The notes under the pieces: generated by a model
Databases searched by the model: none
What the model saw: the letters and a program-made list of their open reading frames with translations, nothing else
What the model was told of the DNA's origin: nothing
In this document: positions 34,377 to 64,000 of the stretch, in pieces
Layout of the letters: every line of letters starts with the position of its first letter
Position numbering within the stretch: position 1 is the stretch's first letter
Made by a program: the position numbers and the translations under genes
NCBI GenBank assembly: GCA_029974835.1
Contig: JARKQN010000078.1
Span: 11,172 to 75,171, forward strand
Length of the DNA stretch: 64,000 nt
Source of the DNA: Bacteroidales bacterium
Lineage (GTDB): Bacteria; Bacteroidota; Bacteroidia; Bacteroidales; VadinHA17
Reading direction: 5' to 3'

Positions 34377-35360
34377 TTAATCCTTTAAGAAATATCCCGC
34401 ATTTCTCAATATGGGATCAATGTCGAAATATCTCAGAATTACCAGCCTGTCTGTTCCTTCGATTCTGCCCCATACCCTGTCGGTATCGGCAACCCTGATT
34501 CCATCGGAATTCTTAACGTATTTTTCCCAGATTTTCACGGTACTGACGGTTCCATCCGTCTTCCCTGCTGTAATAATATAAAGGGGTTCTGAGGTTACAA
34601 TGTCATTGATTTCTTCACGGGTAAGGTCACTCACGGGTTTCTCAAACGGCACATAGGAAAAATATGAAAGATATCTTTTAATCTTTGAGGTATCAGGCCT
34701 TTTGGCATCAGCTTTTAACGCAGACTCAAAATTCATTTCACCGGGTACATGGTAAATCTTAAATGATGATGCTGTATCTCTCAGGTTTCTGACCTCCACG
34801 AAACTGAGTTCGGACGGCATGACGTTAAAAACCATGAAGGGCCGCCAGAAGAACGGATCAGCCGTAAAATATGACCCGATGTCCTCCTCCATTCCCGGTA
34901 CATGCATGACAAAGGGCCGGGAGGCGACTCTCATCTTCATTATATTACCATAAACATTTGAGGATGTGTGATATACAAAAAAGCTCCTTTTCAGCCTCCA
35001 TCCAGAATATACAAAAACCTTTACGGGTTCGGGTTTTACGGAGATCATTTCCTTAAACACGTCGGCTCCTACCGGCGATTTCACCTGCATATCCCGCAGG
35101 ATAAGCAAGAGCATATTCACTGCAAGGGGGCGGGCTTCAGTCTCTCCTCCCACACTCCAGTTTTTTCCATTCTTCTCAAGTACGAGTTTCCTGCCGCCTT
35201 CAAAAAAGACGATCCTGCTGATTTCAGTTTTTTCATCTATGCTGAAGGAAGTGTTTTTTCTTCCGAAAGGAGATCTTTGTCTTGCCAGCAAAATGAGAAT
35301 TGCCGCACCGGCAACCACAATCAGCATCAGGAGAGACAAATCTGTATACTTCCTTTTCAT
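34377..35360 (-). CDS. DUF4340-like protein associated with GldG
   Basis: N-terminal membrane anchor. It is translationally coupled to gldG by a 4-nt overlap. The family assignment is from memory of the typical gldFG neighbourhood. Confidence 0.5.
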   Translation of the reverse strand: MKRKYTDLSLLMLIVVAGAAILILLARQRSPFGRKNTSFSIDEKTEISRIVFFEGGRKLVLEKNGKNWSVGGETEARPLAVNMLLLILRDMQVKSPVGADVFKEMISVKPEPVKVFVYSGWRLKRSFFVYHTSSNVYGNIMKMRVASRPFVMHVPGMEEDIGSYFTADPFFWRPFMVFNVMPSELSFVEVRNLRDTASSFKIYHVPGEMNFESALKADAKRPDTSKIKRYLSYFSYVPFEKPVSDLTREEINDIVTSEPLYIITAGKTDGTVSTVKIWEKYVKNSDGIRVADTDRVWGRIEGTDRLVILRYFDIDPILRNAGYFLKD

Positions 35361-37081
35361 CGGGAGTATTTCTTACGGCGTAAAATATTAAAGATTATTC
35401 CCGCCATTATAACAATCAGAACCGGTCCGGCAGTATTTGCAACTTTAATCAGTGTTCCGTACCTGCTCAGCTTCTTTTTATCGAGCAGACGCAATTTCAG
35501 CTCCCTGGCACGGAGGTTTATCAGACCCTTGTCGTCAACAAGGTAATTGACGCAGTTTAAGAGGAAATCGCGGTTGCCGTAAACCTGCAGCGTATACCTG
35601 TCCTGGCCGAGTGGCAATGGTATTTCGGTCTTCCCTGAACGGCTCACCTCATTCCTGATGATGTCCCTGTCGGCAATTACGATCATGGCTGTAGGTTTAC
35701 TTTCGGTTTTGTTTTTTTCAGGGTTGTTTTCCGTCAGTCCGGGTATATATCTGTTTGTGAATGCCGATCTGAATTTACCTTCGAGCAGCACGGCGACTGG
35801 GAGATGTTGTCTGTTAAAGAGTTCCATATCAGGCAACCTGTCTATCTCCTTCAGGTTTATTGCTACCGGCGGACTTACCGTTCGGCACTGGTTTCCGGTT
35901 GTAAGCAGAATATGTTTTTTCACGCCGGTGTCTCTTCCCACGGTATCGATGTAATTGACAAATTTTCCTGCCACCCTGTTAACATTTCGTGTTACGGGGT
36001 GGTCGGGTGAAGGGTGAAGCAGCGGATAATAGATCCAGGGAGCAGGCACTACCTGCTGTGCCGCACCTCCCGACACCGCCTTCAAAGGTATAAGCATGCA
36101 ATCAAGGTCCTGCACAACTACGGGATTGATTCTAACCCCGTATTTAAAGAGCATCTCCTCAAGCCCTGTAGGTTTGTAAAGAGCAACCGTTTCGCCGTAG
36201 ACGAGGCTGTCGGCGTTCACTTCCACCTCTTCGCAGAGCCATAACACCCTGCCTCCATTCATGATGTACCGGTCAATAACATAGAGGTCCGGCTCATCGA
36301 TCTTTTCCTTGGGTCCTGCCACAATCACAGCTGCATACTTATCGAGTATGCCGGGCTTCCCCTGCGGATTTCCCCTGTCGACAGTATAAAACTTTGCAAG
36401 ACTCATTATAAAGTCGGCCACTTCAATCTCAGGCACTTCCCCATGACCTTCAATAAATGCAACACGGTAAACGGTATCTGAAACAAGTGTCGAGATGGTT
36501 CTGATAAGTTCATATTCAAGACCCTCGGCCGAATGGAGCAGGTTCTCCTCGGGAGAAAGGGAAGGATTGTTTTTCAGGAAATTAACCGGCACCTCTATGT
36601 TGTTATAGTTTATCAGCATCCCCGGATAAATCATTTTTCTGCTTGATCCGCCATCCTTCTCCCTTATAATGACGTTTACCGGCGACAGACCTTTGGCTAT
36701 AAGCTGTTCCTGTTCTTTCTGTCTGAGAGCGGGATCATCCTGTGAATAGGGATTGATAAACTGGTAATCTACTCTCCTGTTCGATGCAAGGCTGAACTCA
36801 TCCAGCATTTCCCTGACGGATCTTTTAAGTTTTTTAAAAAGTACAGGCATTTCTCCGTCAAGATAGACCTGGATAAAAATATCATCGTGCAGGTTTCGTA
36901 GAATTTCCCTTGTGGGTTTTGAAAGCGAGTACCTGTTGTCTTCTGTCAGATCGAGACGAAATCTTACTACCGATCCGGCTGCAGCGGCCAGAAAGACAAA
37001 AAAGCACACCAGCAGAAACTGCGACCAGCTTCTTAACCTCAGACCTTTACGGTCAGTGTTGTCTAATTTGTTTTCTTCCAT
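35357..37081 (-). CDS. gldG: Gliding-motility-associated ABC transporter substrate-binding/accessory protein GldG
   Basis: 574 aa with N- and C-terminal transmembrane anchors. It immediately follows the gldF-like permease. The segment YSLSKPTREILRNLHDDIFIQVYL is typical of GldG. Confidence 0.75.
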   Translation of the reverse strand: MEENKLDNTDRKGLRLRSWSQFLLVCFFVFLAAAAGSVVRFRLDLTEDNRYSLSKPTREILRNLHDDIFIQVYLDGEMPVLFKKLKRSVREMLDEFSLASNRRVDYQFINPYSQDDPALRQKEQEQLIAKGLSPVNVIIREKDGGSSRKMIYPGMLINYNNIEVPVNFLKNNPSLSPEENLLHSAEGLEYELIRTISTLVSDTVYRVAFIEGHGEVPEIEVADFIMSLAKFYTVDRGNPQGKPGILDKYAAVIVAGPKEKIDEPDLYVIDRYIMNGGRVLWLCEEVEVNADSLVYGETVALYKPTGLEEMLFKYGVRINPVVVQDLDCMLIPLKAVSGGAAQQVVPAPWIYYPLLHPSPDHPVTRNVNRVAGKFVNYIDTVGRDTGVKKHILLTTGNQCRTVSPPVAINLKEIDRLPDMELFNRQHLPVAVLLEGKFRSAFTNRYIPGLTENNPEKNKTESKPTAMIVIADRDIIRNEVSRSGKTEIPLPLGQDRYTLQVYGNRDFLLNCVNYLVDDKGLINLRARELKLRLLDKKKLSRYGTLIKVANTAGPVLIVIMAGIIFNILRRKKYSR

Positions 37082-51925: not shown

Positions 51926-52471
51926 CTAATTTAACCTCCTTATTATCTCCATGCCTCTTTTTAACGCCGCCTCATTTTCCGGAATGAGTTTATGGTGCCG
52001 TTCGGGCAGTGATTTTTTAAGTCCCTTAACCACATTTTCGATGCTTATAAGCGGTTTTATTTTAAGATATCCGCCGAGAACAATCATATTAAAAGTCTTC
52101 TGGCTCTTCATTCTTGAGGCTTCTTCTGCAGCATCGATCCTGTAAATTGTTATATCCTTTCTCACAGGGTGCCTTGTTATCCCGTTGCCGTCATAAATAA
52201 GAATGCCTCCGGGTTTAACGGAATTTTCAAACTTATCGAGCGACTGCTGGTTAAGGATGATTGCCGTGTCAAACCGTCTCAATATGGGAGAGCTGATTCT
52301 TTCGGAGCTTATAATTACCGTCACGTTGGCTGTTCCTCCCCTCATCTCAGGCCCGTAAGAAGGCATCCAGCTTACTTCCATATCCTGCATAAGGCCGGAA
52401 TATGCGATTATTTTTCCCATTGAGAGGACCCCCTGGCCGCCAAAACCTGCAATAATAATTTCTTCTGTCAT
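51926..52471 (-). CDS. 2-oxoacid:ferredoxin oxidoreductase, gamma subunit
   Basis: IIIAGFGGQGVLSMGKI is typical of the gamma subunit. It is the last gene of a delta-alpha-beta-gamma set. Confidence 0.88.
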   Translation of the reverse strand: MTEEIIIAGFGGQGVLSMGKIIAYSGLMQDMEVSWMPSYGPEMRGGTANVTVIISSERISSPILRRFDTAIILNQQSLDKFENSVKPGGILIYDGNGITRHPVRKDITIYRIDAAEEASRMKSQKTFNMIVLGGYLKIKPLISIENVVKGLKKSLPERHHKLIPENEAALKRGMEIIRRLN

Positions 52472-52485
52472 TGCAATGGTAATTT

Positions 52486-53298
52486 TTATTGTTCATTCTT
52501 ATTTTCAGCATCCGCGTCGCTTTCTGCCGGCACCTTAAGATCGCCCGGCTTATAGTAAGCGAACATATTCTCTTCCATCCACTTGTTTGATTCCACAGGT
52601 GTCATTTTCCATCCGGAAGGGCAGTTGGAGACAATTTCTATAAAGCACGTTCCCATGCCTTTTTTCTGGTAACCGACTGCTTTTTTTATTGCCTTTTTGG
52701 CCTTTCTCACCGCTGCCGGCGTATGGACACTCTGACGGGTAACGTAGCATGTTCCCGGGAGCATTGCAACCAGTTCGGTCATTTTAAGTGGGTTGCCCAT
52801 CATCTTAACATCCCTTCCGTAAGGCGATGTGGATGATTTCATTCCTTCGAGTGTTGTGGGAGCCATCTGACCGCCTGTCATGCCGTAAATACCGTTGTTA
52901 ATAAAGACAATAAGTATATTCTCGCCACGGTTGCATGCGTGAATTGTTTCGGAAGTACCGATAGCTGCCAGGTCGCCGTCGCCCTGGTATGTAAAAACGA
53001 ATTTTTCAGGCATCAGCCTTTTTATTGCCGTAGCCACCGCGGGGGCTCTTCCGTGTGCTGCCTGCTGGATATCGAGATCGAGGAAATCGTACATCAGTAC
53101 CGAACAGCCAACCGGGCATACGCCTATAGTATTTTCTGCCAGGTTTTCTTCCTCAATCACCTCTGCAATTATTCTGTGGGTGGTTCCGTGTCCGCAGCCG
53201 GGGCAGTACGAAAATGGCTTATCTGTAATCAGGGATGATTTCCTGTATACAAGGTTTTCCGGCTTAATTATATCTTTAAGTCCTTCAGCTGTTTTCAT
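52486..53298 (-). CDS. 2-oxoacid:ferredoxin oxidoreductase, beta (TPP-binding) subunit
   Basis: CPGCGHG and GDGDLAAIG motifs. Confidence 0.9.
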   Translation of the reverse strand: MKTAEGLKDIIKPENLVYRKSSLITDKPFSYCPGCGHGTTHRIIAEVIEEENLAENTIGVCPVGCSVLMYDFLDLDIQQAAHGRAPAVATAIKRLMPEKFVFTYQGDGDLAAIGTSETIHACNRGENILIVFINNGIYGMTGGQMAPTTLEGMKSSTSPYGRDVKMMGNPLKMTELVAMLPGTCYVTRQSVHTPAAVRKAKKAIKKAVGYQKKGMGTCFIEIVSNCPSGWKMTPVESNKWMEENMFAYYKPGDLKVPAESDADAENKNEQ

Positions 53299-53303
53299 GA
53301 TTT

Positions 53304-54365
53304 TCAGATTTTTGTTTTCAGGTATTCAAGAACCTCTTCCGGTTCGGTGATCACTCCCCCCATACGTCCGAAATGGTATACCGGAACCTGCCCGTTGACG
53401 GCGAGCTTAACATCTTCCACCATCTGACCCATGCTCATTTCAACGGAAACGATAATTTTCATGTGTGATGCAAGCGATCTGATCCTTTCATACGGGAACG
53501 GGTAAAGTGTGATGGGTCGCAGAAGGCCGGCCTTAATTCCTTCGGCCCGTGCCAGCTGAAGAGTTTTCTGGCAGACCCTTGCACTGGTGCCGTAAGCCAC
53601 CAGAAGGAATTCGGCATCATCAACCATAATCTCTTCGAACCTCACCTCATTTCGTTCAATTTCCCTGTATTTCTCCTGCAGTCTTAACAGGTGCTGTTCC
53701 TGGGCGTAAGGATCAAGGTCGAGTGAGGTAATAATATTTCTTTCCCTCTCTTTTGTTTTTCCGGTTGTTGCCCACGCCGGCACCTCGGTGCTTCTCTGTT
53801 TCTGGGGTTTCAGGTAAACCTTTTCCATCATCTGCCCGATGGCCCCGTCCGATAAAATCATTGCGGGGTTTCTGTATTTAAAGGCAAGATCGAAGGCCAG
53901 TTCCACAAAATCGGCCATTTCCTGTACCGAGGCCGGTGCAAGTACAATAAGGTGGTAATCGCCATGTCCCCCGCCCTTGACAGCCTGGAAATAATCAGAC
54001 TGTGCCGGTTGAATTGTTCCCAAACCCGGGCCGCCCCTCACAACGTTTACAATAAGGCACGGAAGCTGAGCTCCGGCGATATAAGAGATGCCTTCCTGTT
54101 TCAGGCTTATTCCGGGAGAAGAGGAAGAGGTCATCACTTTCTTTCCGCATCCGGCACCGCCGTATACCATATTTATGGCGGCAACCTCACTTTCTGCCTG
54201 AAGAACGACCATTCCTGTTCTTTCATGCGGATTGGCAGCCATGAGATATTCAAGAATTTCGCTCTGTGGAGTGATGGGATAACCGAAATAGGCATCGGCT
54301 CCGGCCCTTATTGCAGCTTCGGCAATGGCCTCATTGCCCTTCATCAACCGCATTTCTTTTTCCAT
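53304..54365 (-). CDS. 2-oxoacid:ferredoxin oxidoreductase, alpha subunit
   Basis: MKGNEAIAEAAIRAGADAYFGYPITPQSEI. Confidence 0.9.
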   Translation of the reverse strand: MEKEMRLMKGNEAIAEAAIRAGADAYFGYPITPQSEILEYLMAANPHERTGMVVLQAESEVAAINMVYGGAGCGKKVMTSSSSPGISLKQEGISYIAGAQLPCLIVNVVRGGPGLGTIQPAQSDYFQAVKGGGHGDYHLIVLAPASVQEMADFVELAFDLAFKYRNPAMILSDGAIGQMMEKVYLKPQKQRSTEVPAWATTGKTKERERNIITSLDLDPYAQEQHLLRLQEKYREIERNEVRFEEIMVDDAEFLLVAYGTSARVCQKTLQLARAEGIKAGLLRPITLYPFPYERIRSLASHMKIIVSVEMSMGQMVEDVKLAVNGQVPVYHFGRMGGVITEPEEVLEYLKTKI

Positions 54366-54371
54366 AGTGCT

Positions 54372-54596
54372 TCAGATTTTCATTCTATAAACTGTAATAA
54401 CACCATCGGGGCATACCGTTGCACAGTTTGTGCATCCGATACATAGTTCGGGATTGGCCGGGTAGGCATAATGGTATCCTTTCCCGTTAACCTCCGCAGC
54501 AAGCGCGATGGTTTTGGTGGGACATGTAACCACGCAAAGCTCGCATCCCTTGCATTTTTCAATATCTACTACAATACTTCCTTTTACTTTTGCCAT
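54372..54596 (-). CDS. 2-oxoacid:ferredoxin oxidoreductase, delta subunit (2x[4Fe-4S] ferredoxin)
   Basis: CKGCELCVVTCP and CIGCTNCATVCP. Confidence 0.88.
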   Translation of the reverse strand: MAKVKGSIVVDIEKCKGCELCVVTCPTKTIALAAEVNGKGYHYAYPANPELCIGCTNCATVCPDGVITVYRMKI

Positions 54597-54603
54597 ATCT
54601 GGT

Positions 54604-55944
54604 TCAGTTATTTACAGGATGATCTTTCGAAAATTTTTCAAGTCTTTCAATCAGGTCGGGAAACTGTTCCCGCTTAATTCTTGAGACGCATGCTCTCAGT
54701 CCTTCCGTGCGTTCGCTTCCCGTAATTATCAAAGATATTGCGCTGATGCCGTAGCACAGCAGTTCCCTGATCAGTTCTCCCGACGACATTCCCGGGTACG
54801 AGATTGTAAAATAGAATCCGTCAGCCAGCGGCTCATCGAGGTCCCTGTCATAGACAAGCCGGAAACCGTTCTTCAGGAATATTTCTTTCATAATGGCCGC
54901 TTTCTCTCCATACTCCTTAACATCCTCCCTGTAACGGTAGGTTCCGTCGTTTACTGCCTTAAGAAGCGCAGCCAGCCCATATTGTGCCGAGTGAGTCACA
55001 CCTGCCGACAATGCATAAAGGGCTCCGTAAATAAGTGCCTGCCCAAAACTGTCGGATGAATAATATCTCAGCAGGTCGGGATAGCGTCTGTTAAAAAGAT
55101 GGTCGGAAATAGCCATAAGCCCTATTCGCTGCCCGGCGTAGCTGAATATTTTTGAGCTTGAGAGGAGTATCACGTAATCCTTTGTGTAATGGGCTACACT
55201 CGGCTGGTACGGCGGCTCTCCCGGCACAGTGTAATCCTTGCGGAAATCCATCCCGAAATATGCAAGGTCCTCGATGACAATTACATCATGCTTGTCACAA
55301 AGCTCTCCGATTATTGACAATTCCTCCTCGGTAAAACATATCCACGACGGGTTATTCGGATTGGAAAAAAGAATTGACGATATTTTTCCTCCCGAAAGGC
55401 ATGACTCGAGTTTATCGCGAAGCTTTTTACCCCTGTAATTGTAAACATCGAAGGAATGGTAGTCATGGCCCAGCATTCTTACCTGTTGCTTCTGTACGGG
55501 GAAGCCCGGGTCGAGAAAAAGTGTGCCTTCCTTTGTTCTGTCGTTGCGGTTTGCTACAAGGAAACAGAGCATCCCGCCCATTAAAGACCCGACCGTGGGT
55601 ATACACCCCTTCGGGCTTATGTCAATATTAAGAAAAAGCTTAAAGAATCTTGAAGCCTCTTCTTTAAGGATTTTTAATCCTTCGATATTCGGATACACTG
55701 CACCCACACCCTTCTTCAGAGCTTCAATCTCGGCATCAATCCCGATCGTCGGAGGAGGAATGCCGGGCTCTCCGATTTCCATCCTGATAAACTTCACACC
55801 GGTTGCATATTCGATCTGGTTGACAAGCCTCACAATCTCCCTTATGCTTGCCGTCCCGGGATCTTTTATTCCACTCTCCTCCAGCTTGCGTTTTACCACT
55901 TCCGGATCAACGGGTGTTTTATTTATTTTAAAAGGTTGTGACAT
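54604..55944 (-). CDS. PLP-dependent aminotransferase (class I/II)
   Basis: SSSKIFSYAGQRIG (the SxSK...GxR PLP-lysine motif). 446 aa. Confidence 0.8.
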   Translation of the reverse strand: MSQPFKINKTPVDPEVVKRKLEESGIKDPGTASIREIVRLVNQIEYATGVKFIRMEIGEPGIPPPTIGIDAEIEALKKGVGAVYPNIEGLKILKEEASRFFKLFLNIDISPKGCIPTVGSLMGGMLCFLVANRNDRTKEGTLFLDPGFPVQKQQVRMLGHDYHSFDVYNYRGKKLRDKLESCLSGGKISSILFSNPNNPSWICFTEEELSIIGELCDKHDVIVIEDLAYFGMDFRKDYTVPGEPPYQPSVAHYTKDYVILLSSSKIFSYAGQRIGLMAISDHLFNRRYPDLLRYYSSDSFGQALIYGALYALSAGVTHSAQYGLAALLKAVNDGTYRYREDVKEYGEKAAIMKEIFLKNGFRLVYDRDLDEPLADGFYFTISYPGMSSGELIRELLCYGISAISLIITGSERTEGLRACVSRIKREQFPDLIERLEKFSKDHPVNN

Positions 55945-56068
55945 TTTCTCAGAAGCGAAGTTAAAAATAATAATTATTACCCTTCCAAAACCTGCTTAAT
56001 ATCAGTATTATAACCTGCCTATAACATTGATTATCAATTAAATGATAATCTAAAGCATTTTCAGCGCT

Positions 56069-58141
56069 TCAACTGTCCGGAATTCTTTTTTCAATCCGGA
56101 TTCTTGCGTCAACTGCAATAATTTCTTCGCCGTTTCCCATCAGTGGGTTAAGGTCAAGTTCTATTATTTCCGGTGCAGCTTCAATAAGTGCGGATAGCCG
56201 GCATATCAGCTCTGCAAATGATTTTTCGCTCACGCCGCCCTGCCCCCTGACTCCCTTTATTAAGCCATATCCTTTAAGGGAGCGTATCATATCGATGGCG
56301 GTATTTATTCCTACCGGTATAAGGGAAAATGAAAAATCCTTAAGAACCTCCACAAAAATACCCCCCAGGCCAGCCAGCAGGATGTGTCCGAATCCGGCTT
56401 CATACTTAACACCTGCAAAGAGTTCGGTTCCCGGGGTCATTTTCTGTATTAATACCTTTCTGCATTCTTTAATTGCCATTAGCCGGCGGAATGATTCCAG
56501 GGCTTTTTCATTGTCTGAAACATTAAGTACCACACCTCCGGCATCTGTTTTATGAAGAGGTCCGACCGCCTTCATGGCAACCGGAAATCCTACACTCTTT
56601 ATAGCTGATATTGTCTCCTTCTCACCGGCTGCATATAACGAAAGCGGTCTTTGTATTCCTGCCGCATCAAGAAGTATATCTGCATCCTCAGGTTCAAGGT
56701 ATCCGCCGGCAGCGGATTCAATTACAGATCTTATCAATTTATGATTAACTCTGAAGCCATTATCCGTACCGGTTTCCGGCTGAGGTGCATTCAGGACTGC
56801 CGAAAGGGCTTTGCCGAATATTGCCTCATCTGTGAAGTAAATATTTCCTTTTGCCGCAAATTCATCCATCTCCTTCCCGGCATTGATAAGTGAAGGCAGA
56901 ATTGCATAGACAGGTTTACGGCAGATTCTCATTTTCTCATGAAGAACTTTATAGACATTTTTCACGGAAAAGAGTCCAGGGCTGCCGAAGATAACGGCTA
57001 TTGAATCAATGTTACTGAAGTCATTGTCACAGGCATCAAGTATAAGTCCGAGTTGTTCTGCGGTGCCTGTAGCCAGGAAATCCACCGGGTTTGCAACCGA
57101 AGAGCCCGGGTGGAGTTTCTCCTTCAGCCGTTCAGCTGCAGGGCCTGTAATATGCGGCACCTCAATGCCGTTCTTCGAGAGAACATCCGTAAGTATTACT
57201 GCGGGTCCTCCTGCATGGGTAACTATTCCGACCCTCCTGCCTGCAGGTTTCCTGTGAAGGAATACCGAAGCGACTGCAACCAGTTCCGAACGGCTGTGAC
57301 ATCTGATAATTCCGGCCTTTCTGAACAGGGCGTCGTAAGCCATATCCGGACTAGCCATTGCCCCTGTGTGTGATGAAGCGGCCCTTATGCCGGCCTCAGA
57401 CACCCCTGCTTTAAGGGCGGCTATCCTGCATCCTTTGGCTATCAGTGAAGCAGAGTGTTTAAGGAGTTTTCCGGGGTTACGGATGCTTTCGATGTAAAGC
57501 AGTTTGACGCCGGCACTGCTTCCGGGCGTGTAGGAATCGTCAAGATATTCAAGCACGTCCTCGATGCCTGTCTGGGCACTGTTGCCCACAGACCATACCG
57601 CGGAGAAAGGCACACCGTTTGTAACGGCAGCCTCCATTATGAATACCGCCGTTGCACCTGATCCGGAGATAAGCTCTACGCCGTCGGGTCTAAGTACCGG
57701 CAGGGGTGTTGTAAAAACCCCCGCATAATTCATGTTCAGAAACCCTATGCAGTTCGGACCAATCAGGGTCCCCCCTGCCGAACTGATGACCGAAGCAATT
57801 TTCTGTTCAGCCTCACGACCTTCTCCGCTCTCCTCGCCAAAGCCGGCCGAAAGAATTATGAATGCCCCGGTCTTTTTCTGCTCCGCGAGCACCGTAACGG
57901 CCTGCAGGCACATCTTCGCCGGTATGGCAAGAATGGCAAGATCGCAGGGCGGAAGAAGAGAGACATCAGGATAAGATTTAATACCTTGTATAACCTGTGC
58001 TTTGGGGTTTACAACATAGAGATGCCCCTTGTATCCTCCCGAAATGAGATTATACAATACTTTGCCTCCGGTTTTGGATATATCTTCGGATCCTCCTACC
58101 ACGGCAATGCTGCCGGGATTTAACAGTTTTTCATTGATCAT
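56069..58141 (-). CDS. ADP-forming acetyl/acyl-CoA synthetase (fused CoA-binding, ligase and ATP-grasp domains)
   Basis: N-terminal CoA-binding segment LLNPGSIAVVGGSED. Phosphohistidine loop ASSHTGAMAS. C-terminal ATP-grasp half. 690 aa. Confidence 0.82.
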   Translation of the reverse strand: MINEKLLNPGSIAVVGGSEDISKTGGKVLYNLISGGYKGHLYVVNPKAQVIQGIKSYPDVSLLPPCDLAILAIPAKMCLQAVTVLAEQKKTGAFIILSAGFGEESGEGREAEQKIASVISSAGGTLIGPNCIGFLNMNYAGVFTTPLPVLRPDGVELISGSGATAVFIMEAAVTNGVPFSAVWSVGNSAQTGIEDVLEYLDDSYTPGSSAGVKLLYIESIRNPGKLLKHSASLIAKGCRIAALKAGVSEAGIRAASSHTGAMASPDMAYDALFRKAGIIRCHSRSELVAVASVFLHRKPAGRRVGIVTHAGGPAVILTDVLSKNGIEVPHITGPAAERLKEKLHPGSSVANPVDFLATGTAEQLGLILDACDNDFSNIDSIAVIFGSPGLFSVKNVYKVLHEKMRICRKPVYAILPSLINAGKEMDEFAAKGNIYFTDEAIFGKALSAVLNAPQPETGTDNGFRVNHKLIRSVIESAAGGYLEPEDADILLDAAGIQRPLSLYAAGEKETISAIKSVGFPVAMKAVGPLHKTDAGGVVLNVSDNEKALESFRRLMAIKECRKVLIQKMTPGTELFAGVKYEAGFGHILLAGLGGIFVEVLKDFSFSLIPVGINTAIDMIRSLKGYGLIKGVRGQGGVSEKSFAELICRLSALIEAAPEIIELDLNPLMGNGEEIIAVDARIRIEKRIPDS

Positions 58142-58332: not shown

Positions 58333-59253
58333 TCAGTATATAAGTTCGCTTACCTCTTCAATAGCTTTTTTGACAGTCGTGCTGAAATATCTTTGATCGT
58401 AGAGGTTAAGGGTTTCGGAAAGCCGTTTATGGAAGTAAAGAATAATCTTTTTGCCCCTGTAGTCGTTACCGGTGCCGGGAGTATGAAAATATACTCCGTT
58501 CTCTCCGTCTGTGTTCTCGCCTATCAGCACTATACATTTATGCCGTGAGTTATCTGAGGAAACGGAAGCGGCATAGATGCCTCCAGGTGGAATCAGCTTG
58601 TCCGGTTCGATCTTCCCGGCGGAAAAGAAATTATAATCACTGACCGGCAGGTTGCGGGCCTCTTCCGGAAAACACATTATCATATAATGATTATCGAGGT
58701 AGGCATTTGCCCGCTGAATATATCCGTCGCTGATTGCTTTCCTGATCCTGGTGGAGCTGACTGTTTCATGCTCCACTTCCCTGGCAGGAATCTCTTCTGC
58801 TTCAAATCCGTAGATATCCTTCAGATTCCAGAGGTAGTTATAATCTCCCTGTCTGTTGCAGCCGAAATGATGATTGAATCCGACCACAATAACTCTGGCC
58901 CCGATAACAGAGACCAGGTAATCCCTTACAAACTCCTCGCAGGTGATCCTTGAGAATTCTCTAGTAAATTCAGCGATTATGACATTATCTACACCGGCTT
59001 TTTCAAGCAGCAGCATTTTTTCGTCCGTTGTATTTATCAGCCTGAGGCTTTTGCCTGCAGATTCAGGGTAAAGCACCTTCCGCGGGTGAGGATGAAAAGT
59101 GATCAGTACTGTTTCACCGTTATACAGCGAGGCAAGGTTACGCAGACGGTTGATAATTGCTTTGTGCCCCACGTGCACGCCATCGAACGAACCGGTAGTG
59201 ACAACAGGATTTCTGAATTGCTTTAACGCTCCAAAGCCTCTGAAGATATCCAT
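58333..59253 (-). CDS. ribF: Bifunctional riboflavin kinase / FMN adenylyltransferase
   Basis: VVTTGSFDGVHVGHKAII and SSTRIRKAI motifs. Confidence 0.9.
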   Translation of the reverse strand: MDIFRGFGALKQFRNPVVTTGSFDGVHVGHKAIINRLRNLASLYNGETVLITFHPHPRKVLYPESAGKSLRLINTTDEKMLLLEKAGVDNVIIAEFTREFSRITCEEFVRDYLVSVIGARVIVVGFNHHFGCNRQGDYNYLWNLKDIYGFEAEEIPAREVEHETVSSTRIRKAISDGYIQRANAYLDNHYMIMCFPEEARNLPVSDYNFFSAGKIEPDKLIPPGGIYAASVSSDNSRHKCIVLIGENTDGENGVYFHTPGTGNDYRGKKIILYFHKRLSETLNLYDQRYFSTTVKKAIEEVSELIY

Positions 59254-59263
59254 CCCCGGTTTG

Positions 59264-59890
59264 TTATCTGATGCTTTCCTTTACAAAATAGGCCACTTTT
59301 TCGATTGAAGTCACCATGTCATATTCTTCGAGATAGACCGTCGGCGGTACATTCAGTGACACAGTTGTGAAGTTGAGTACACCTTTAACGCCGAAACGGA
59401 CGGCATCATCGCAGGTGCTCCTGGCGTAATCGGGAGGGACGGTAAGGATAATTATTGAGATATTGAGCTCTTTTATCATGTTTTCCATCTCCCTTACATC
59501 ATAGCACCTTACACCGGAAATAACTTTTCCGGTTTTCTGCTGATCATTATCGAAGGAAGCAACCAGATTAAGCTTGGATCTTTTCCCTCTGAAATATGAA
59601 GAAACGGCACGTCCGAGGTTTCCCATGCCGATGATCGCGACATTCAGCGGTGTCTCGGAATCGATTACCCTGCCAATAGTTTCCACGAGCACCCTGATAT
59701 CATAACCTTTTCTAATTCCGCTCGAGTATCCGATAAGCATTAAGTCGCGACGCACCTGTACTGCTGTAATGTGCAGCAATGAGGCCAGTTCATGTGAATA
59801 AATGTAATTCTTTCCCTGAGAAATAAGTGTAAGCAGGACTCTCCTGTATTCACTCAGCCTTTCGACAGTTTTTCCGGGAAGTTTTTTCAT
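59264..59890 (-). CDS. rex: Redox-sensing transcriptional repressor Rex
   Basis: I prefer the start MKKLPGKTVERLSEYRRVLL (Met24 of the tracked ORF). Winged-helix segment AVQVRRDLMLIGY. Rossmann segment VAIIGMGNLGRAV. Confidence 0.88.
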   Translation of the reverse strand: MKKLPGKTVERLSEYRRVLLTLISQGKNYIYSHELASLLHITAVQVRRDLMLIGYSSGIRKGYDIRVLVETIGRVIDSETPLNVAIIGMGNLGRAVSSYFRGKRSKLNLVASFDNDQQKTGKVISGVRCYDVREMENMIKELNISIIILTVPPDYARSTCDDAVRFGVKGVLNFTTVSLNVPPTVYLEEYDMVTSIEKVAYFVKESIR

Positions 59891-59900
59891 AATTGATGTT

Positions 59901-61025
59901 TTATTGATTAAGTGGTAACCTGACCGTAAAAATAGAACCTTTTTCCGGTATACTTTCAACTGATATTGTTCCTTTGTAAAGGTCGACTACTTTTTTTACA
60001 ATGGACAAGCCGAGTCCGCTGCCGGTTATATTTTTTGTTTCATCGCGTTTTATTCTTACGAATTCGGTAAAGAGGGATTCCATATCTTCAGGTCTGATGC
60101 CTATTCCGGTGTCGGAGAATATCACGACAGCCTCACCCGGGCTTTTGTCGATTGTTATTTCCACCTTACCTTCCCTGCGGTTATACTTTACGGCATTCGA
60201 TATCAGGTTATTAAAGATTATGGCGATATCTTCCGGGTCGGCCATTATTACGGCTTCGGCTTTTTTAATCACCTCTATCTGCACCTCCATCTGGATTGCA
60301 TAAGGCTGTATTGTTGCCACGGAATCGGACACGGCAGAAGCCAGGTTAACCGGTTGCAGTTTCTCTTCACGTTTCTCGAGTCTTATCTTCGTAAAATCAA
60401 GCAGGTCCATGATCAGGTTTCTCATTCCCTGGATTCTCTGCAGCGATCTGTCGATGGGTACCGCATAATCGTCAATTTTTTCGCCGTACTGTCTTTCCTG
60501 CATCATCCTCAGGTATCCTTCAATGGCGTTTAATGGCGCCTTGAGCTCATGTGAGAGTACTGAAAGAAACTGGTATCTTACTTTTTTACCCTCCTCGTTG
60601 AGCCTGTGAGTTATTCTTTTCAGATAGAGTTGCTTGGTTATATTCTCAATGCTCGATTTCAGTTCCTGAGGGGTAAATGGTTTGGGAATGAAATCGGAGG
60701 CTCCGTTCCGGGTCGCCCTGACAGCCACGTCGAGTGAAGCATATGAGGTTATCATAGCCACAACCATGTCGTGATTTTTCTTTCTGATATTATCCAGTAC
60801 ATCCACGCCCTGCATTCCCGGCAGTTTATTGTCGAGAAGAACGATATCGGGTTTGTTTTTTTCGATAATCTCAAGAGCCTCCTCTCCCGTGGGTGCTTCA
60901 AGGATTTCGAAAGAAAAATCCTCATCCATAAAAGGATAGGTCACGGAAAAATTTCCCAGGATTCTGGCCACGCCCGATCTTATTCCTGGTTCATCATCAA
61001 CCACAAGAACCTTAAGAATACCCAT
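59901..61025 (-). CDS. Response-regulator receiver fused to a histidine kinase (REC-HisKA-HATPase)
   Basis: REC segment KVLVVDDEPGIR...IVLLDNKLPGMQG. H-box LSVLSHELKAPLNAI. G-box GSGLGLSIVKKVV. Confidence 0.9.
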   Translation of the reverse strand: MGILKVLVVDDEPGIRSGVARILGNFSVTYPFMDEDFSFEILEAPTGEEALEIIEKNKPDIVLLDNKLPGMQGVDVLDNIRKKNHDMVVAMITSYASLDVAVRATRNGASDFIPKPFTPQELKSSIENITKQLYLKRITHRLNEEGKKVRYQFLSVLSHELKAPLNAIEGYLRMMQERQYGEKIDDYAVPIDRSLQRIQGMRNLIMDLLDFTKIRLEKREEKLQPVNLASAVSDSVATIQPYAIQMEVQIEVIKKAEAVIMADPEDIAIIFNNLISNAVKYNRREGKVEITIDKSPGEAVVIFSDTGIGIRPEDMESLFTEFVRIKRDETKNITGSGLGLSIVKKVVDLYKGTISVESIPEKGSIFTVRLPLNQ

Positions 61026-61026
61026 T

Positions 61027-61431
61027 TCAGCGATTTAAGAGTTTGATTATTTCCTGATCAAGCTGTTCCGGTCTCACTCCTTTTTCAAGGTATGAATCTG
61101 CCCTTATCCAATCTTTTTCGGTACGGCTGTCGGTACTGAATGATATACCGGTTTCGCGGGCAACTGCGGTGGGTATTATAACAGGCACGTCAGGATACTT
61201 TTTCTTCATCTTATAACATAGAATAAATCCGCTGTCGTCATTCTCCATCATCAGGTCGAATACAGCGACATCAGGTTTCTGGCCTGCTATATAGGCTTCA
61301 GCCTCAGCCTGGCTGCTTACGCCGGCAACTCTGTAACCCGCCTTTTCGAGCCCTGCTATAGTCTGGAAGAGGTAATCGGGATCATCATCCGCAACAAGCA
61401 CTGTATATTTTTTCCTGTCCATAATCTGCAA
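61027..61431 (-). CDS. Stand-alone response-regulator receiver domain protein
   Basis: TVLVADDDPD...VAVFDLMM. There is no output domain. Its stop codon lies 1 nt from the start of the next gene. Confidence 0.85.
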   Translation of the reverse strand: MQIMDRKKYTVLVADDDPDYLFQTIAGLEKAGYRVAGVSSQAEAEAYIAGQKPDVAVFDLMMENDDSGFILCYKMKKKYPDVPVIIPTAVARETGISFSTDSRTEKDWIRADSYLEKGVRPEQLDQEIIKLLNR

Positions 61432-61465: not shown

Positions 61466-63421
61466 TTACTCTTTTTTCCTTGGCAGCACAATACGGAAAC
61501 TTGTTCCTGTAGGACCTTTCGATGGATCGTCATTTGATTCAACCGTAATCTGGCCCTTATGCATTTTAACAATGCCATAGGCTGTTGCTAGGCCCAGCCC
61601 GGTACCATGGCCTATACCCTTGGTTGTAAAGAACGGTTCAAAGATTTTGGATCTGTTCTCCTCCTTAATGCCTGTACCTGTGTCTTTCACCTCAATTATA
61701 ATATCCCCCGGAGTATCTTTCATCGTCAGTGTAACAGTACCTCCCTGCGGCATGGCATCGATGGCATTCTTGATGAGATTTGATATTACCTGGGTCATCT
61801 GTTCGTGATCGAGCATTGCCTGGGGACTTGTAAGATTACAGACTATTTCGGTTTTAACATTTTCTGGAACAATAACACTTTCCAGGCTGTGCCCTACAAG
61901 CTCTTTCACGTTCACCTCCTGGTGGTTTACCTGGTTTTTACGTGCAAAATTAAGTAGTCCCCCCACAATTTTCTTGCAGCGGCCGGCCTGTTCGGCTATC
62001 AGTTTGAGGTCTTCTCTCATGGGATCATCCGGCCGGCATTCATCAAGAAGTATGTTACTGTACATTATCACCACCCCAAGGGGGTTATTCAGTTCATGGG
62101 CAATGCCTGCCGAAAGCTGTCCCATATGAGCCAGTTTCTCGGATTGTCTGAGGGCCTGTTTCATGGTACTGAGTTTCTCGTTCGACACTTCGAGCTGCCG
62201 TACCATATTATGAAGATTCTCTATGGTCCATGGAAGGCACATTTCCGACTCGGCCAGTCCTTTCTTAATGGCTATTGCGTGTTCCACGCAGGTTTCGTAG
62301 CCGCAGGCGCCGCAATTAAGATGATCCTTGATGGTATGCTTGCCCATTGCTGCCAGAATATCTGTTACGTCTTCGTCGGTATTTATGATTCTCTGGTCGG
62401 CCGGGGAATAACGCACAGAGAGGTCGAGTGATGAAAATTCGTCCATGTTTTTTTCCCACTCAAGGAGGTTCATGTTCCACATCTTTTCGCGTGCATAGGA
62501 ACTTACCAGGTTTCGCCTGTTATATTGTTTCCCGTTCCTTGAGAGTCCCGGTCCCATTATACAGCCTTCGCAGCAAAGCAGCTCCATATGGGAATTCTTC
62601 AGTAGTCCTGCCTCATACTCCTTAAGGGCATTCTGAAAATCTATTCTTCCTTCGGCTGCAATTATATTGCCCGTTATTGCATCATCGTTAATACCGGCCG
62701 TCTGCATCAAACCTCTTGTAACAGGGAATATTGCACCTCTTCCTCCCTTGGGGGGATCAAAATCGGACGGGGTACTATTTTCAGGCCTGATACCACTTCT
62801 CTGAAACAGGTCTCTCAGTTCCAGAAAAGTTATTGCCTCATCTATTTCCTGGCTTTCAGCCTTTTTGGCAATGCAGGGTCCGATGAAAACTATTTTCAGA
62901 TTATCTCCGTATTTTTTCCGCATTACCCTTGAAGTTGCAACCATTGGAGAGACTACAGGGGCGAGATGGTCGACAAGATCCGGATGATAAAACCTTACGT
63001 AATTAACTATGGAAGGACAGTCGGATGAGATGTAATACCTGTCTCCCGACATGAGGCTTCCGAAGCGGTGAGCGACAAGGTCGGCCCCGAAAGAGACCTC
63101 TGCCACAAGGCTGAACCCCAGACTCCTTACCATGCCCACAAAAACCCTGTAATCAGTAATCTCCTGAAACTCAGCCGGAAAGCTGGGTGCAATGATTGCA
63201 GCGGTTCTTTCACCCGATTCAATAAGGTTAATAACCCTGCCGGTAGTATCGAGGAAGACCTTTGCACCCTGGCTGCAAACCTTTGTGCAGTTTCCGCAGG
63301 CGATACACCTGTCGGCAATGACTTCCGCCTGACCTCCGACAATCCGTATTGCCTTGGCCGGGCATTCCCTCACACATGTATAACAGGTGCGGCAGAGTTC
63401 TTTAATGGTATATACAAGCAT
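61466..63421 (-). CDS. [FeFe]-hydrogenase-like sensor domain (HydS-type) fused to a histidine kinase
   Basis: N-terminal 2x[4Fe-4S] motifs (CRTCYTCVRECP, CIACGNCTKVC). H-domain motifs SSDCP (aa 132-136), GPCIAKKAE (aa 181-189) and LLCCEGCIMGPG (aa 281-292). Cx2Cx4Cx16C at aa 370-395. A coiled linker follows, then H-box AGIAHELNNPL and GHGTGLGLATAYG. Confidence 0.8.
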   Translation of the reverse strand: MLVYTIKELCRTCYTCVRECPAKAIRIVGGQAEVIADRCIACGNCTKVCSQGAKVFLDTTGRVINLIESGERTAAIIAPSFPAEFQEITDYRVFVGMVRSLGFSLVAEVSFGADLVAHRFGSLMSGDRYYISSDCPSIVNYVRFYHPDLVDHLAPVVSPMVATSRVMRKKYGDNLKIVFIGPCIAKKAESQEIDEAITFLELRDLFQRSGIRPENSTPSDFDPPKGGRGAIFPVTRGLMQTAGINDDAITGNIIAAEGRIDFQNALKEYEAGLLKNSHMELLCCEGCIMGPGLSRNGKQYNRRNLVSSYAREKMWNMNLLEWEKNMDEFSSLDLSVRYSPADQRIINTDEDVTDILAAMGKHTIKDHLNCGACGYETCVEHAIAIKKGLAESEMCLPWTIENLHNMVRQLEVSNEKLSTMKQALRQSEKLAHMGQLSAGIAHELNNPLGVVIMYSNILLDECRPDDPMREDLKLIAEQAGRCKKIVGGLLNFARKNQVNHQEVNVKELVGHSLESVIVPENVKTEIVCNLTSPQAMLDHEQMTQVISNLIKNAIDAMPQGGTVTLTMKDTPGDIIIEVKDTGTGIKEENRSKIFEPFFTTKGIGHGTGLGLATAYGIVKMHKGQITVESNDDPSKGPTGTSFRIVLPRKKE

Positions 63422-63438: not shown

Positions 63439-64000
63439 TCAGAGTAGCACATCCCTTTTCACGAATGAAGTGTGAAGCAGTTTGCCGGCAGGGTTTTTCG
63501 CATTTTGTTTCACCTCTTTCAGGTAGAAATTAAATATTGCCGGTGATGCGGACGGCATCTGGACAGGGTCTGTTTCTTCGTTCTGGTAAGCCAGCCTGGC
63601 CCTGTTTCTGATTTCCTCCTTCGATGCCGGGGCGGGCATGCCTCCTCCGTTTACACACCCTCCCGGGCATACCATTACCTCGACCAGGTCATATTGCTTT
63701 CCTGAAGAGATTTGTTCTTTGAGCTTTGCAAAACCTGCCAGGCCGTCAACGACGGCAACTCTAATTTTTCTGCCCTGAATTTCAGGTTCAGCTTCACGGA
63801 ACGAAGATGTTCCTCTGAGGCTTTTAAAAGGTTTTCTGCCCGGGTCATTCCCTGAAAGCTTCAGTGAAGTGTAGCGCATTACGGCTTCAGCGAGACCTCC
63901 TGAGACTTCCGCAATAACCGCTGCAGAACTTTTCAGTGAGGCAGGTTCGTCAGCCTGCTCCCCTTCGGTTTCAACAGCATCGATGCCGTAAAGCTTTATC
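63439..64000 (-). CDS. hydA: [FeFe]-hydrogenase catalytic subunit, C-terminal part (5' end lies beyond the right edge)
   Basis: The canonical L3 motif VEVMVCPGGCVNGGGMP is present. My own translation upstream of the tracked Met stays open to nt 64000: ...KLYGIDAVETEGEQADEPASLKSSAAVIAEVSGGLAEAVMRYT. This parallels the clostridial HydA GGVMEAALR region. Confidence 0.8.
   Translation of the reverse strand, partial: IKLYGIDAVETEGEQADEPASLKSSAAVIAEVSGGLAEAVMRYTSLKLSGNDPGRKPFKSLRGTSSFREAEPEIQGRKIRVAVVDGLAGFAKLKEQISSGKQYDLVEVMVCPGGCVNGGGMPAPASKEEIRNRARLAYQNEETDPVQMPSASPAIFNFYLKEVKQNAKNPAGKLLHTSFVKRDVLL

Follow-up and report, generated by a model that had tools for sequence, protein, structure and literature searches.

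How do sensory [FeFe] hydrogenases pass on what they sense? The question is raised by a gene close to the end of a 64,000-nucleotide stretch of Bacteroidales DNA (assembly GCA_029974835.1, contig JARKQN010000078.1, positions 11,172 to 75,171; hereafter the window), whose product, here called the sensor, joins a hydrogenase-like domain and a histidine kinase in one polypeptide. The two characterized sensory [FeFe] hydrogenases, HydS of Thermotoga maritima (TmHydS) and HydS of Thermoanaerobacter mathranii (TamHydS), are without a measurable output. A kinase fusion opens its output to direct assay, as autophosphorylation at His442 and as transfer of the phosphoryl group to the two receivers next to it. 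We regard it as fairly probable that the sensor is a histidine kinase controlled by H2 or redox state through a HydS-type input, feeding a phosphorelay that tunes hydrogenase expression. The kinase is predicted to be cytoplasmic, and its input would be a sensory, group C [FeFe]-hydrogenase module of the HydS type.

Domain layout and putative signaling linker

The gene is a single open reading frame (Table 1), and its product carries, in this order, a ferredoxin-like F-domain, an H-domain, a C-terminal cluster, a coiled-coil linker, HisKA and HATPase_c. The H-domain scored 141 bits against a Pfam cut-off of 22, the C-terminal cluster matched the PF04060 'FeS' family over residues 368 to 397 (30.6 bits; cut-off 23), and HisKA was placed at residues 433 to 496 (E=1.2e-13). 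Conservation was read from two alignments, one of 17 distant kinase-fused relatives at 37-52% identity (A1) and one of 74 full-length relatives (A2). [quoted passage not shown] The kinase boxes are kept as well, with H442, E443, N445, N446, P447, L448, N552, D580, G582, G584, F594, P596, F597 and G606-L611 invariant in A2. The closest Protein Data Bank (PDB) sequence to the transmitter core is ZraS (9jfj; E=2e-33), and the NCBIfam AtoS model matched at 197 bits, every specific NCBIfam kinase model scoring under its cut-off.

[quoted passage not shown] In Foldseek, its first ~430 residues superpose on the solved [FeFe] hydrogenases CbA5H, DdH, TmHydA and CpI over about 360-445 residues, with E values from 1e-18 to 8e-22 (best for CbA5H, about 1e-18 for CpI), and the C-terminal part fits the kinase core of ZraS. 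A family profile matched PDB hydrogenases at E=1e-37 to 1e-45. The best sequence and fold matches are all bacterial hydrogenases, and the F-domain is of the bacterial ferredoxin type. The original prediction, made from the sequence, had described one polypeptide with a ferredoxin domain, an H-domain, an accessory cluster and a kinase core; the Pfam matches and the fold model show this layout. Translation likewise reproduced every residue and nucleotide position that it quoted for its motifs, including the exact Cx2Cx4Cx16C motif at residues 370-395.

Table 1. Coordinates in the window of the sensor gene, its modules and motifs, and the neighboring genes of the cassette.
Feature	Position (nt)	Strand	Evidence or remark
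Sensor kinase gene	61466..63421	-	Single open reading frame, 651 aa; Pfam; identical public protein P0001
2x[4Fe-4S] ferredoxin (F) domain, aa 4-53	63263..63412	-	Pfam Fer4_10/Fer4; Fer4 dicluster E=8.6e-8
[FeFe]-hydrogenase H-domain (PF02906, Fe_hyd_lg_C), aa 72-291	62549..63208	-	Pfam E=5e-41
L1/P1 motif SSDCP, aa 132-136	63014..63028	-	Aligned on TSCCP of solved hydrogenases
L2/P2 motif GPCIAKKAE, aa 181-189	62855..62881	-	Aligned on MPCxxKKxE
L3/P3 motif ELLCCEGCIMGPG	62546..62584	-	Aligned on solved structures with a gap
C-terminal accessory [4Fe-4S] motif Cx2Cx4Cx16C, aa 370-395	62237..62314	-	Pfam PF04060
47-residue helical signaling linker, aa 396-441 (putative role)	62099..62236	-	DSSP of model; alignment
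Phospho-acceptor His442 codon, H-box AHELNNPL	62096..62098	-	Sub-range translation
Catalytic HATPase_c domain (N, G1, F and G2 boxes), aa 538-649	61475..61810	-	Pfam E=4e-26
hydA 3' end (HydABC-type large subunit), runs past the window end	63439..64000	-	Pfam; full gene in L001, 2136-3854
Stand-alone CheY-like receiver	61027..61431	-	Pfam Response_reg; probable start ATG 61422, 131 aa (L001 call)
Receiver-HisKA-HATPase hybrid kinase, 374 aa	59901..61025	-	Pfam
Redox-sensing repressor Rex	59264..59959	-	Pfam; NCBIfam Rex 188 bits vs cut-off 126; probable start ATG 59890
ribF (flavin adenine dinucleotide synthetase / riboflavin kinase), last of the tight run	58333..59253	-	Pfam FAD_syn

The cluster module leads directly into the kinase. 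From C395, the last cysteine of the C-terminal cluster, to H442 there are 47 residues, and a helix begins at C395-L396-P397; DSSP assigns helices to residues 396-416, 423-461 and 468-494, and the model is helical throughout residues 396-494, on into the dimerization and histidine phosphotransfer (DHp) domain. This agrees with the earlier description of a short linker running straight into the H-box of a HisKA/HATPase core with no intervening PAS domain. No PAS family was found at E<=0.01 in the Pfam scan of the 651-residue protein, and a hidden PAS domain is ruled out by that blank together with the helical model and the length of the linker. Hydrophobic residues are conserved at the a/d positions 400, 403, 407, 410, 417 and 424, as is Asn at 414, and the heptad pattern runs on into DHp helix 1. 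Among 80 related loci, the sample for all context counts below, the linker is 47 residues long in 64 and 40 in 12, the shorter form lacking exactly residues 410-416, or one heptad. A hydrophobicity periodicity spectrum of the linker gave no sharp peak; heptads are argued for from the conservation at a/d positions and from an indel of exactly seven residues. Such a pattern marks coiled-coil signaling helices that are sensitive to register, and we infer that the signal is transmitted through this one.

The predicted H-cluster site and the probable signal

Alignment with solved hydrogenases placed all three H-cluster motifs. In L1, SSDCP stands in place of TSCCP, as originally predicted, with Cys135 on the cluster ligand C300 of CpI and Asp134 on C299, the cysteine that relays protons. 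L2 also fits the proposed MPCxxKxxE pattern, Cys183, Lys186 and Glu189 falling on C355, K358 and E361 and Gly181 replacing M353; G181, P182, C183, K186, K187 and E189 are invariant in A2. For L3 the earlier account needs amending. The segment LLCCEGCIMGPG, at residues 281-292, does align, and it does contain the literal CxxxC pair C283 and C287 on which that account relied. The conserved pair, however, is probably C284 and C287: ELLCCE-GC aligns on EVMACxGGC with a one-residue gap, which sets Leu282 on M497, Cys284 on C499 and Cys287 on C503. C284 and C287 are invariant across the kinase-fused family, whereas C283 varies and is a clade-specific extra, so C283/C287 was rejected as the conserved CxxxC pair. 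The last two H-cluster cysteines are thus spaced CxxC (as CxGC) in place of the canonical CxxxC, one residue shorter, and CxGC was found in 77/80 loci. The resulting ligand set, C135, C183, C284 and C287 (CpI C300, C355, C499 and C503), is aligned and invariant.

Around the [2Fe] site, where residues are matched by motif alignment and not from a solved structure of the sensor protein, several lining positions are kept: A78-P79-S80 (CpI A230-P231-S232), K186 (K358) and P159 (P324). F232, near-invariant in A2, falls on the Phe within canonical IFGxxGG, which we take, in our own numbering, to be CpI F417. The canonical proton path is absent from the alignment, the E279 segment being deleted and E282 and S319 replaced by Arg and Ala. 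With the hallmarks of HydS proteins taken from Land et al. (PMC8163306) and Chongdar et al. (PMC10055695), all are present here, as the original assignment to a HydS-type sensory domain implied: a 2x[4Fe-4S] N-terminus, the Cx2Cx4Cx16C motif (described for the M2e and M2f HydS subclasses; PMC8163306), replacement of C299, M353 and M497, loss of the proton path, and an adjoining trimeric operon of group A type.

The same substitutions invite the main rival explanation, a redox sensor. Here the H-domain would hold a [4Fe-4S] cluster only, with no [2Fe] subcluster, and the kinase would report how reduced the ferredoxin or Fe-S pool is, by way of three or four cubanes, much as Nar1-like proteins keep the fold and have lost hydrogenase chemistry. 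The shortening of L3 to CxGC in nearly all loci is consistent with such a loss, as are the replaced M353 and M497, the missing proton path and the high variability of the C299 position in the family (T, S, A, P, D). A Hydrogenedentota study (PMC11406978) doubts the H-cluster motifs in related (group C1) proteins, and genes for Rex and a 2-oxoacid:ferredoxin oxidoreductase lie close by. Against this, residues that contact only the [2Fe] subcluster are invariant or nearly so, namely K186 (K358), the Ala-Pro-Ser triad and C287 (C503); the maturase genes hydG, hydE and hydF often adjoin the cassette in related loci; and it is genuine hydrogenases that come nearest in sequence and in fold. TmHydS and TamHydS, which share the layout of F-domain, H-domain and C-terminal cluster and have similar substitutions, still bind a functional H-cluster (PMC10055695, PMC8163306). 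We therefore hold a pure redox sensor to be rather unlikely, and infer H-cluster occupancy, with H2 as the signal, for the sensor.

Asp134 sets one branch of the family apart. As had been pointed out, the proton-relaying Cys of TSCCP is an Asp here, and Asp was found in 117/120 close homologues. In the 80 loci it occurs in 25, of which 24 are from Bacteroidota and one is a Gaiellales sequence; other loci carry Thr, Ser, Ala, Pro or Asn there. Asp134 was accordingly rejected as a feature of the whole family, the residue being almost wholly confined to Bacteroidota. Within that phylum it covaries with S190, beside L2, and H278, five residues ahead of the L3 cysteines. Six positions in all are fixed in the Asp134 branch and different in every other branch (D134, S190, H278, S437, Q497 and S512), and three of these flank the L1, L2 and L3 motifs. 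Asp is the only C299 substitution reported to keep prototypical enzymes active (PMC10055695), and a CpI C299D structure (6glz) is among the PDB matches.

The partner hydrogenase subunit HydA also differs in the window's clade (L001-L010), where the surroundings of its [2Fe] site have diverged; sensors of other phyla have a canonical HydA next to them. L1 of the clade reads I[ST]ACPAW, with Ala at CpI C299, and L2 reads [TS]PCxAMKFE in 9/10 loci, with Thr or Ser for M353 and Met for K358. The APA/APS triad is altered in 10/10 (SPS in the window's gene), the Phe of IFGxxGG is lost, and the four Cys and EVMxCPGGC are kept; the NCBIfam A6 score lies under the cut-off (587 vs 765). Because Asp134 occupies the C299 position, because it covaries with S190 and H278, and because the partner HydA has lost its equivalents of C299 and K358, we speculate that the Bacteroidota sensor may itself be a catalytically competent H2-activating unit that couples turnover to signaling, the HydABC-like complex having changed its role, with Asp134, S190 and H278 as a possible natural alternative proton relay. 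We give this idea little credence.

A hydrogenase cassette with a possible phosphorelay of its own

The window carries the 3' part of a conserved cassette, hydC-hydB-hydA, sensor kinase, stand-alone receiver and receiver-kinase hybrid, in which nearly all loci lie; from hydB onward its order recurs across about ten phyla. An identical 7-kb Logan contig (L001) extends it upstream of the sensor with hydB and the full hydA, which encodes 572 residues with Fer2, NuoG-type and Fer4 domains and an H-domain. Spacing in this minus-strand run, of which the sensor is the second visible gene, is tight, with gaps of 17 nt from hydA to the sensor, 1 nt from receiver to hybrid kinase, and 10 nt from rex to ribF, a rex-then-ribF order that recurs in Bacteroidales loci. 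Across the 80 loci, where many misses are loci cut by contig ends, the sensor is kinase-fused in 75 (the other five open reading frames are shorter, some at a contig end and one, L005, split), hydA lies directly 5' of it in 62, a stand-alone receiver directly 3' in 57, and a receiver-kinase hybrid 3' in 67. hydC was found in 58 and Rex in 39, 20 of them downstream (Bacteroidales) and 19 upstream of hydCBA (elsewhere); within 10 kb of the cassette, hydG was found in 32, hydE in 20 and hydF in 16.

So close an association allows that the sensor is an accessory subunit of HydABC, docking on the bifurcating complex and exchanging electrons with it, like the 'T' subunit proposed for group C3 in Hydrogenedentota, so that the kinase reports turnover or acts on the complex instead of sensing free H2. 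The 17-nt spacing and the kept gene order suit such a role, as does the lack of a DNA-binding regulator in the cassette, and PMC11406978 takes Hydrogenedentota group C3 proteins as BfuT subunits. We consider it distinctly unlikely all the same, since a complete transmitter and two dedicated receiver proteins point to a conventional phosphorelay and no solved HydABC structure has such a subunit (7p5h, 8a6t and 7q4w match HydA only). Loci L042, L043 and L052 also have the sensor without an adjacent hydA, although contig ends complicate these cases. Another alternative takes the signal to be a gas other than H2. O2, CO and NO all react with Fe-S clusters and with the H-cluster, and damage or ligand binding at either could switch the kinase and so protect oxygen-labile hydrogenases. 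TamHydS has an unusual reactivity toward CO and O2 (PMC8163306). Oxidative and nitrosative stress genes were, however, not found in the gene neighborhood, and the linkage is specifically to hydrogenase, Rex and maturases, which makes a sensor of O2, CO or NO very improbable.

We thus return to a kinase controlled by H2 or redox state. By analogy with TmHydS and TamHydS, H2 would bind at the H-cluster and be slowly oxidized, and the conformation and redox state of the Fe-S module would be set in this way. C395 lies at the foot of the 47-residue helix that leads unbroken into the His442 DHp helix, and a change at the cluster could alter the register or rotation of a dimeric coiled coil. The NtrB/AtoS-like kinase would then toggle between autophosphorylation and a phosphatase state, and, as the conserved gene order suggests, the phosphoryl group may pass to the stand-alone receiver, the receiver-kinase hybrid or both in a multistep or branched relay. 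Together with the NADH sensor Rex, this relay could match how strongly the co-encoded HydABC-type hydrogenase is expressed, or how active it is, to the load of H2 and reductant. HydDB proposes that Group C1 senses H2 through histidine kinases (PMC5037454).

Several points weigh against this proposal. Every solved hydrogenase has an L3 longer by one residue, and the bridging of a [2Fe] subcluster is accordingly putative. The Hydrogenedentota study scarcely recognized P1-P3 in C1 sequences and doubted H2 sensing (PMC11406978). The C-terminal cluster of TamHydS is not reduced by H2, and its removal barely alters catalysis (PMC13104023), so a simple cluster-reduction signal is unlikely. Confidence in the monomer model falls to a pLDDT of <50 for residues 413-439, as expected for a dimeric element. 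hydEFG were not found in the 64-kb window, either with NCBIfam on 20 large open reading frames or by tblastn with HydG, HydF and HydE of related loci, a blank that does not mean that the genome lacks them; a DNA-binding response regulator is absent from the cassette across related loci; and a literature search found no functional study on kinase-fused sensory hydrogenases.

Other features of the region bear on its regulation. Palindromes resembling the Rex operator (TTGTGAAnnnnTTCACAA, <=2 mismatches) gave 71 matches in related loci against 20-39 in shuffles. In many of these loci they lie just 5' of rex or hydC, among others at L045 4126, L048 5062/5105, L056 4986/5049, L030 4663, L071 4588, L011 5786 and L035 5700. 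The two in the window (37728 and 50294) are away from the cassette, and the window stops before the operon promoter. A promoter and terminator scan, run without Bacteroidota promoter models, gave counts at or under those of shuffled sequence; it placed no intergenic terminator on the minus strand, which is compatible with one operon. The position of ribF beside an operon whose HydB has a flavin mononucleotide-binding domain may be no coincidence.

In Bacteroidales relatives, a second sensory-hydrogenase paralogue was seen (L010, 3141-5024 and 1949-3187, minus strand; also L002, L004, L008, L009, L011, L015, L022, L025, L035 and L070). It has about 625 residues with Fer4, Fe_hyd_lg_C and PF04060, no kinase and an unassigned C-terminal region of about 210 residues. 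Its gene is oriented divergently to hydCBA, with a SpoIIE/PP2C phosphatase gene behind it, and so recalls the phosphatase-linked group C3; the equivalent DNA falls past the window end. In Ignavibacteria (L068 12456-19444, L066, L069, L073, L075, L079 and L081) the signaling genes are followed by another receiver, a shorter hydB' (about 400 residues), a canonical hydA' (about 640 residues with a small-subunit tail) and a further kinase, so that one sensor may sit between two hydrogenase operons. On the 3' side of the cassette in the window, the minus strand at 51926-58141 encodes an ADP-forming acetyl-CoA synthetase (56069-58141), an aminotransferase (54604-55944) and a VorB-type 2-oxoacid:ferredoxin oxidoreductase set (51926-54365), a ferredoxin-reducing, ATP-yielding amino acid fermentation that would feed a ferredoxin- and NADH-dependent hydrogenase. 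Farther off, 35357-37081 (minus strand) encodes the gliding-motility ATP-binding cassette transporter component GldG (NCBIfam 531 bits; cut-off 390), which, taken with close homologues of the sensor in Bacteroidales only, assigns the window to Bacteroidota.

Relatives, precedents and meaning

Direct fusion without PAS is the dominant, normal form of these kinase-fused proteins and no peculiarity of this gene. A word-index search returned >100 clusters that share the Pfam architecture at 74-100% identity, mostly Bacteroidales metagenome-assembled genomes. An exhaustive search with the N-terminal 400 residues gave 932 clusters (50% identity) at E<1e-30; a kinase core was present in 43 of the best 150 of the 932 representatives, and in most of those 43 the His lies about 47 residues past the last cluster cysteine. 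A profile search added 120 further proteins, all with HisKA and HATPase except three shorter, probably truncated entries and none with PAS, among them a protein from a cultured carrier, Ignavibacterium album JCM 16511. PAS-type HydS relatives (about 570 residues) keep the canonical CxGGC at L3. Species-representative genomes, one per species, yielded at least 600 matched stretches, of which 599/600 of those listed were confirmed. By record titles, the carriers among the matches listed span about ten phyla, including Bacteroidota, Planctomycetota, Myxococcota, Ignavibacteria and Acidobacteriota as well as Actinomycetes/Thermoleophilia, Elusimicrobia, Verrucomicrobiota, Spirochaetota, Hydrogenedentota and Deltaproteobacteria-type lineages. 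The sensor domain itself has <=74% identity to any species-representative genome among the matches listed, and its close homologues are from Bacteroidales only.

TmHydS (group C, M2f) shares with the sensor the N-terminal 2x[4Fe-4S] domain, the H-domain and the C-terminal Cx2Cx4Cx16C motif (PMC10055695, PMC8163306), together with a residue other than Cys at C299, Gly for M353, the missing canonical proton path and an operon link to another hydrogenase. It ends in a PAS domain without a kinase, however, whereas the sensor lacks the C-terminal PAS domain of the M2f/TmHydS type and has its kinase fused through a helix; the contrast originally drawn with the PAS-bearing HydS proteins studied so far holds for TmHydS. 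The two also differ at C299 (Ala in TmHydS, Asp in the sensor) and M497 (Ser and Leu). TamHydS (group D, M2e) has the same three-module Fe-S layout without PAS (PMC8163306, PMC13104023), the same Leu at M497, and C-terminal cluster cysteines that span 25 residues in both proteins (C379 to C404 in TamHydS, C370 to C395 in the sensor). Its gene lies beside those of a bifurcating hydrogenase and a kinase-like ATPase, but the protein stops after the cluster domain, so that the putative kinase partner is a separate gene product, and M353 is Ser/Thr in M2e where the sensor has Gly.

More remote precedents exist for the output. In the regulatory [NiFe] HoxBC/HoxJ system (group 2b) of Cupriavidus/Ralstonia, a low-activity hydrogenase serves as the H2 receptor of a kinase that controls hydrogenase genes (PMC5037454, PMC5665086). 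There, the metal site and fold are unrelated, sensor and kinase are separate polypeptides joined via a PAS-like region, and the output is a known DNA-binding regulator, HoxA, of a kind that the sensor cassette lacks. HisKA kinases of the NtrB/AtoS/ZraS type have the transmitter core and all kinase boxes in common with the sensor; their input is periplasmic or a PAS domain, whereas that of the sensor would be a cytoplasmic Fe-S/H-cluster module.

The nearest known kind is Group C1, which HydDB lists as 'histidine kinase-linked (putative)' (PMC5037454) and of which Petrimonas mucosa ING2E5A_0849 is an example. A Bacteroidales genome paper places a C1 gene beside hnd genes (PMC7768429); groundwater Elusimicrobia have a group C hydrogenase fused to a kinase HATPase, not PAS, adjoining a trimeric group A enzyme with Rex close (2020; bioRxiv 10.1101/765248); and HATPase_c occurs in C1 proteins of Hydrogenedentota (2024; PMC11406978). 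All four agree with the earlier statement that kinase-linked forms are known from genomic classification only. The likeness extends to the coupling of a hydrogenase-like H-domain with a histidine kinase, to the multimeric group A hydrogenase alongside, to Rex nearby and to the same phyla including Bacteroidales; nothing essential differs, and the sensor is one more member, a placement that its architecture, context and the literature suggest. The existence and architecture of kinase-fused proteins are already on record, and the sensor belongs to a known, biochemically uncharacterized kind; its value is therefore that of a good experimental target and not of a discovery. Relative to those papers, as far as they could be read, what is new is the family-wide CxGC, the linker lengths of 47 and 40 residues, which differ by one heptad, and the Bacteroidota-specific Asp at C299. 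The loss of the C299 and K358 equivalents from the clade's partner HydA is a further new detail.

The family is the most direct experimental handle on sensory [FeFe]-hydrogenase signaling, and the one-heptad variation of its linker lends itself to clear mutational tests. It probably reports hydrogen or reducing power to anaerobic bacteria. Its frequent occurrence among Bacteroidales and further fermenters from anoxic habitats makes it relevant to the control of H2 production in digesters, sediments and possibly guts.

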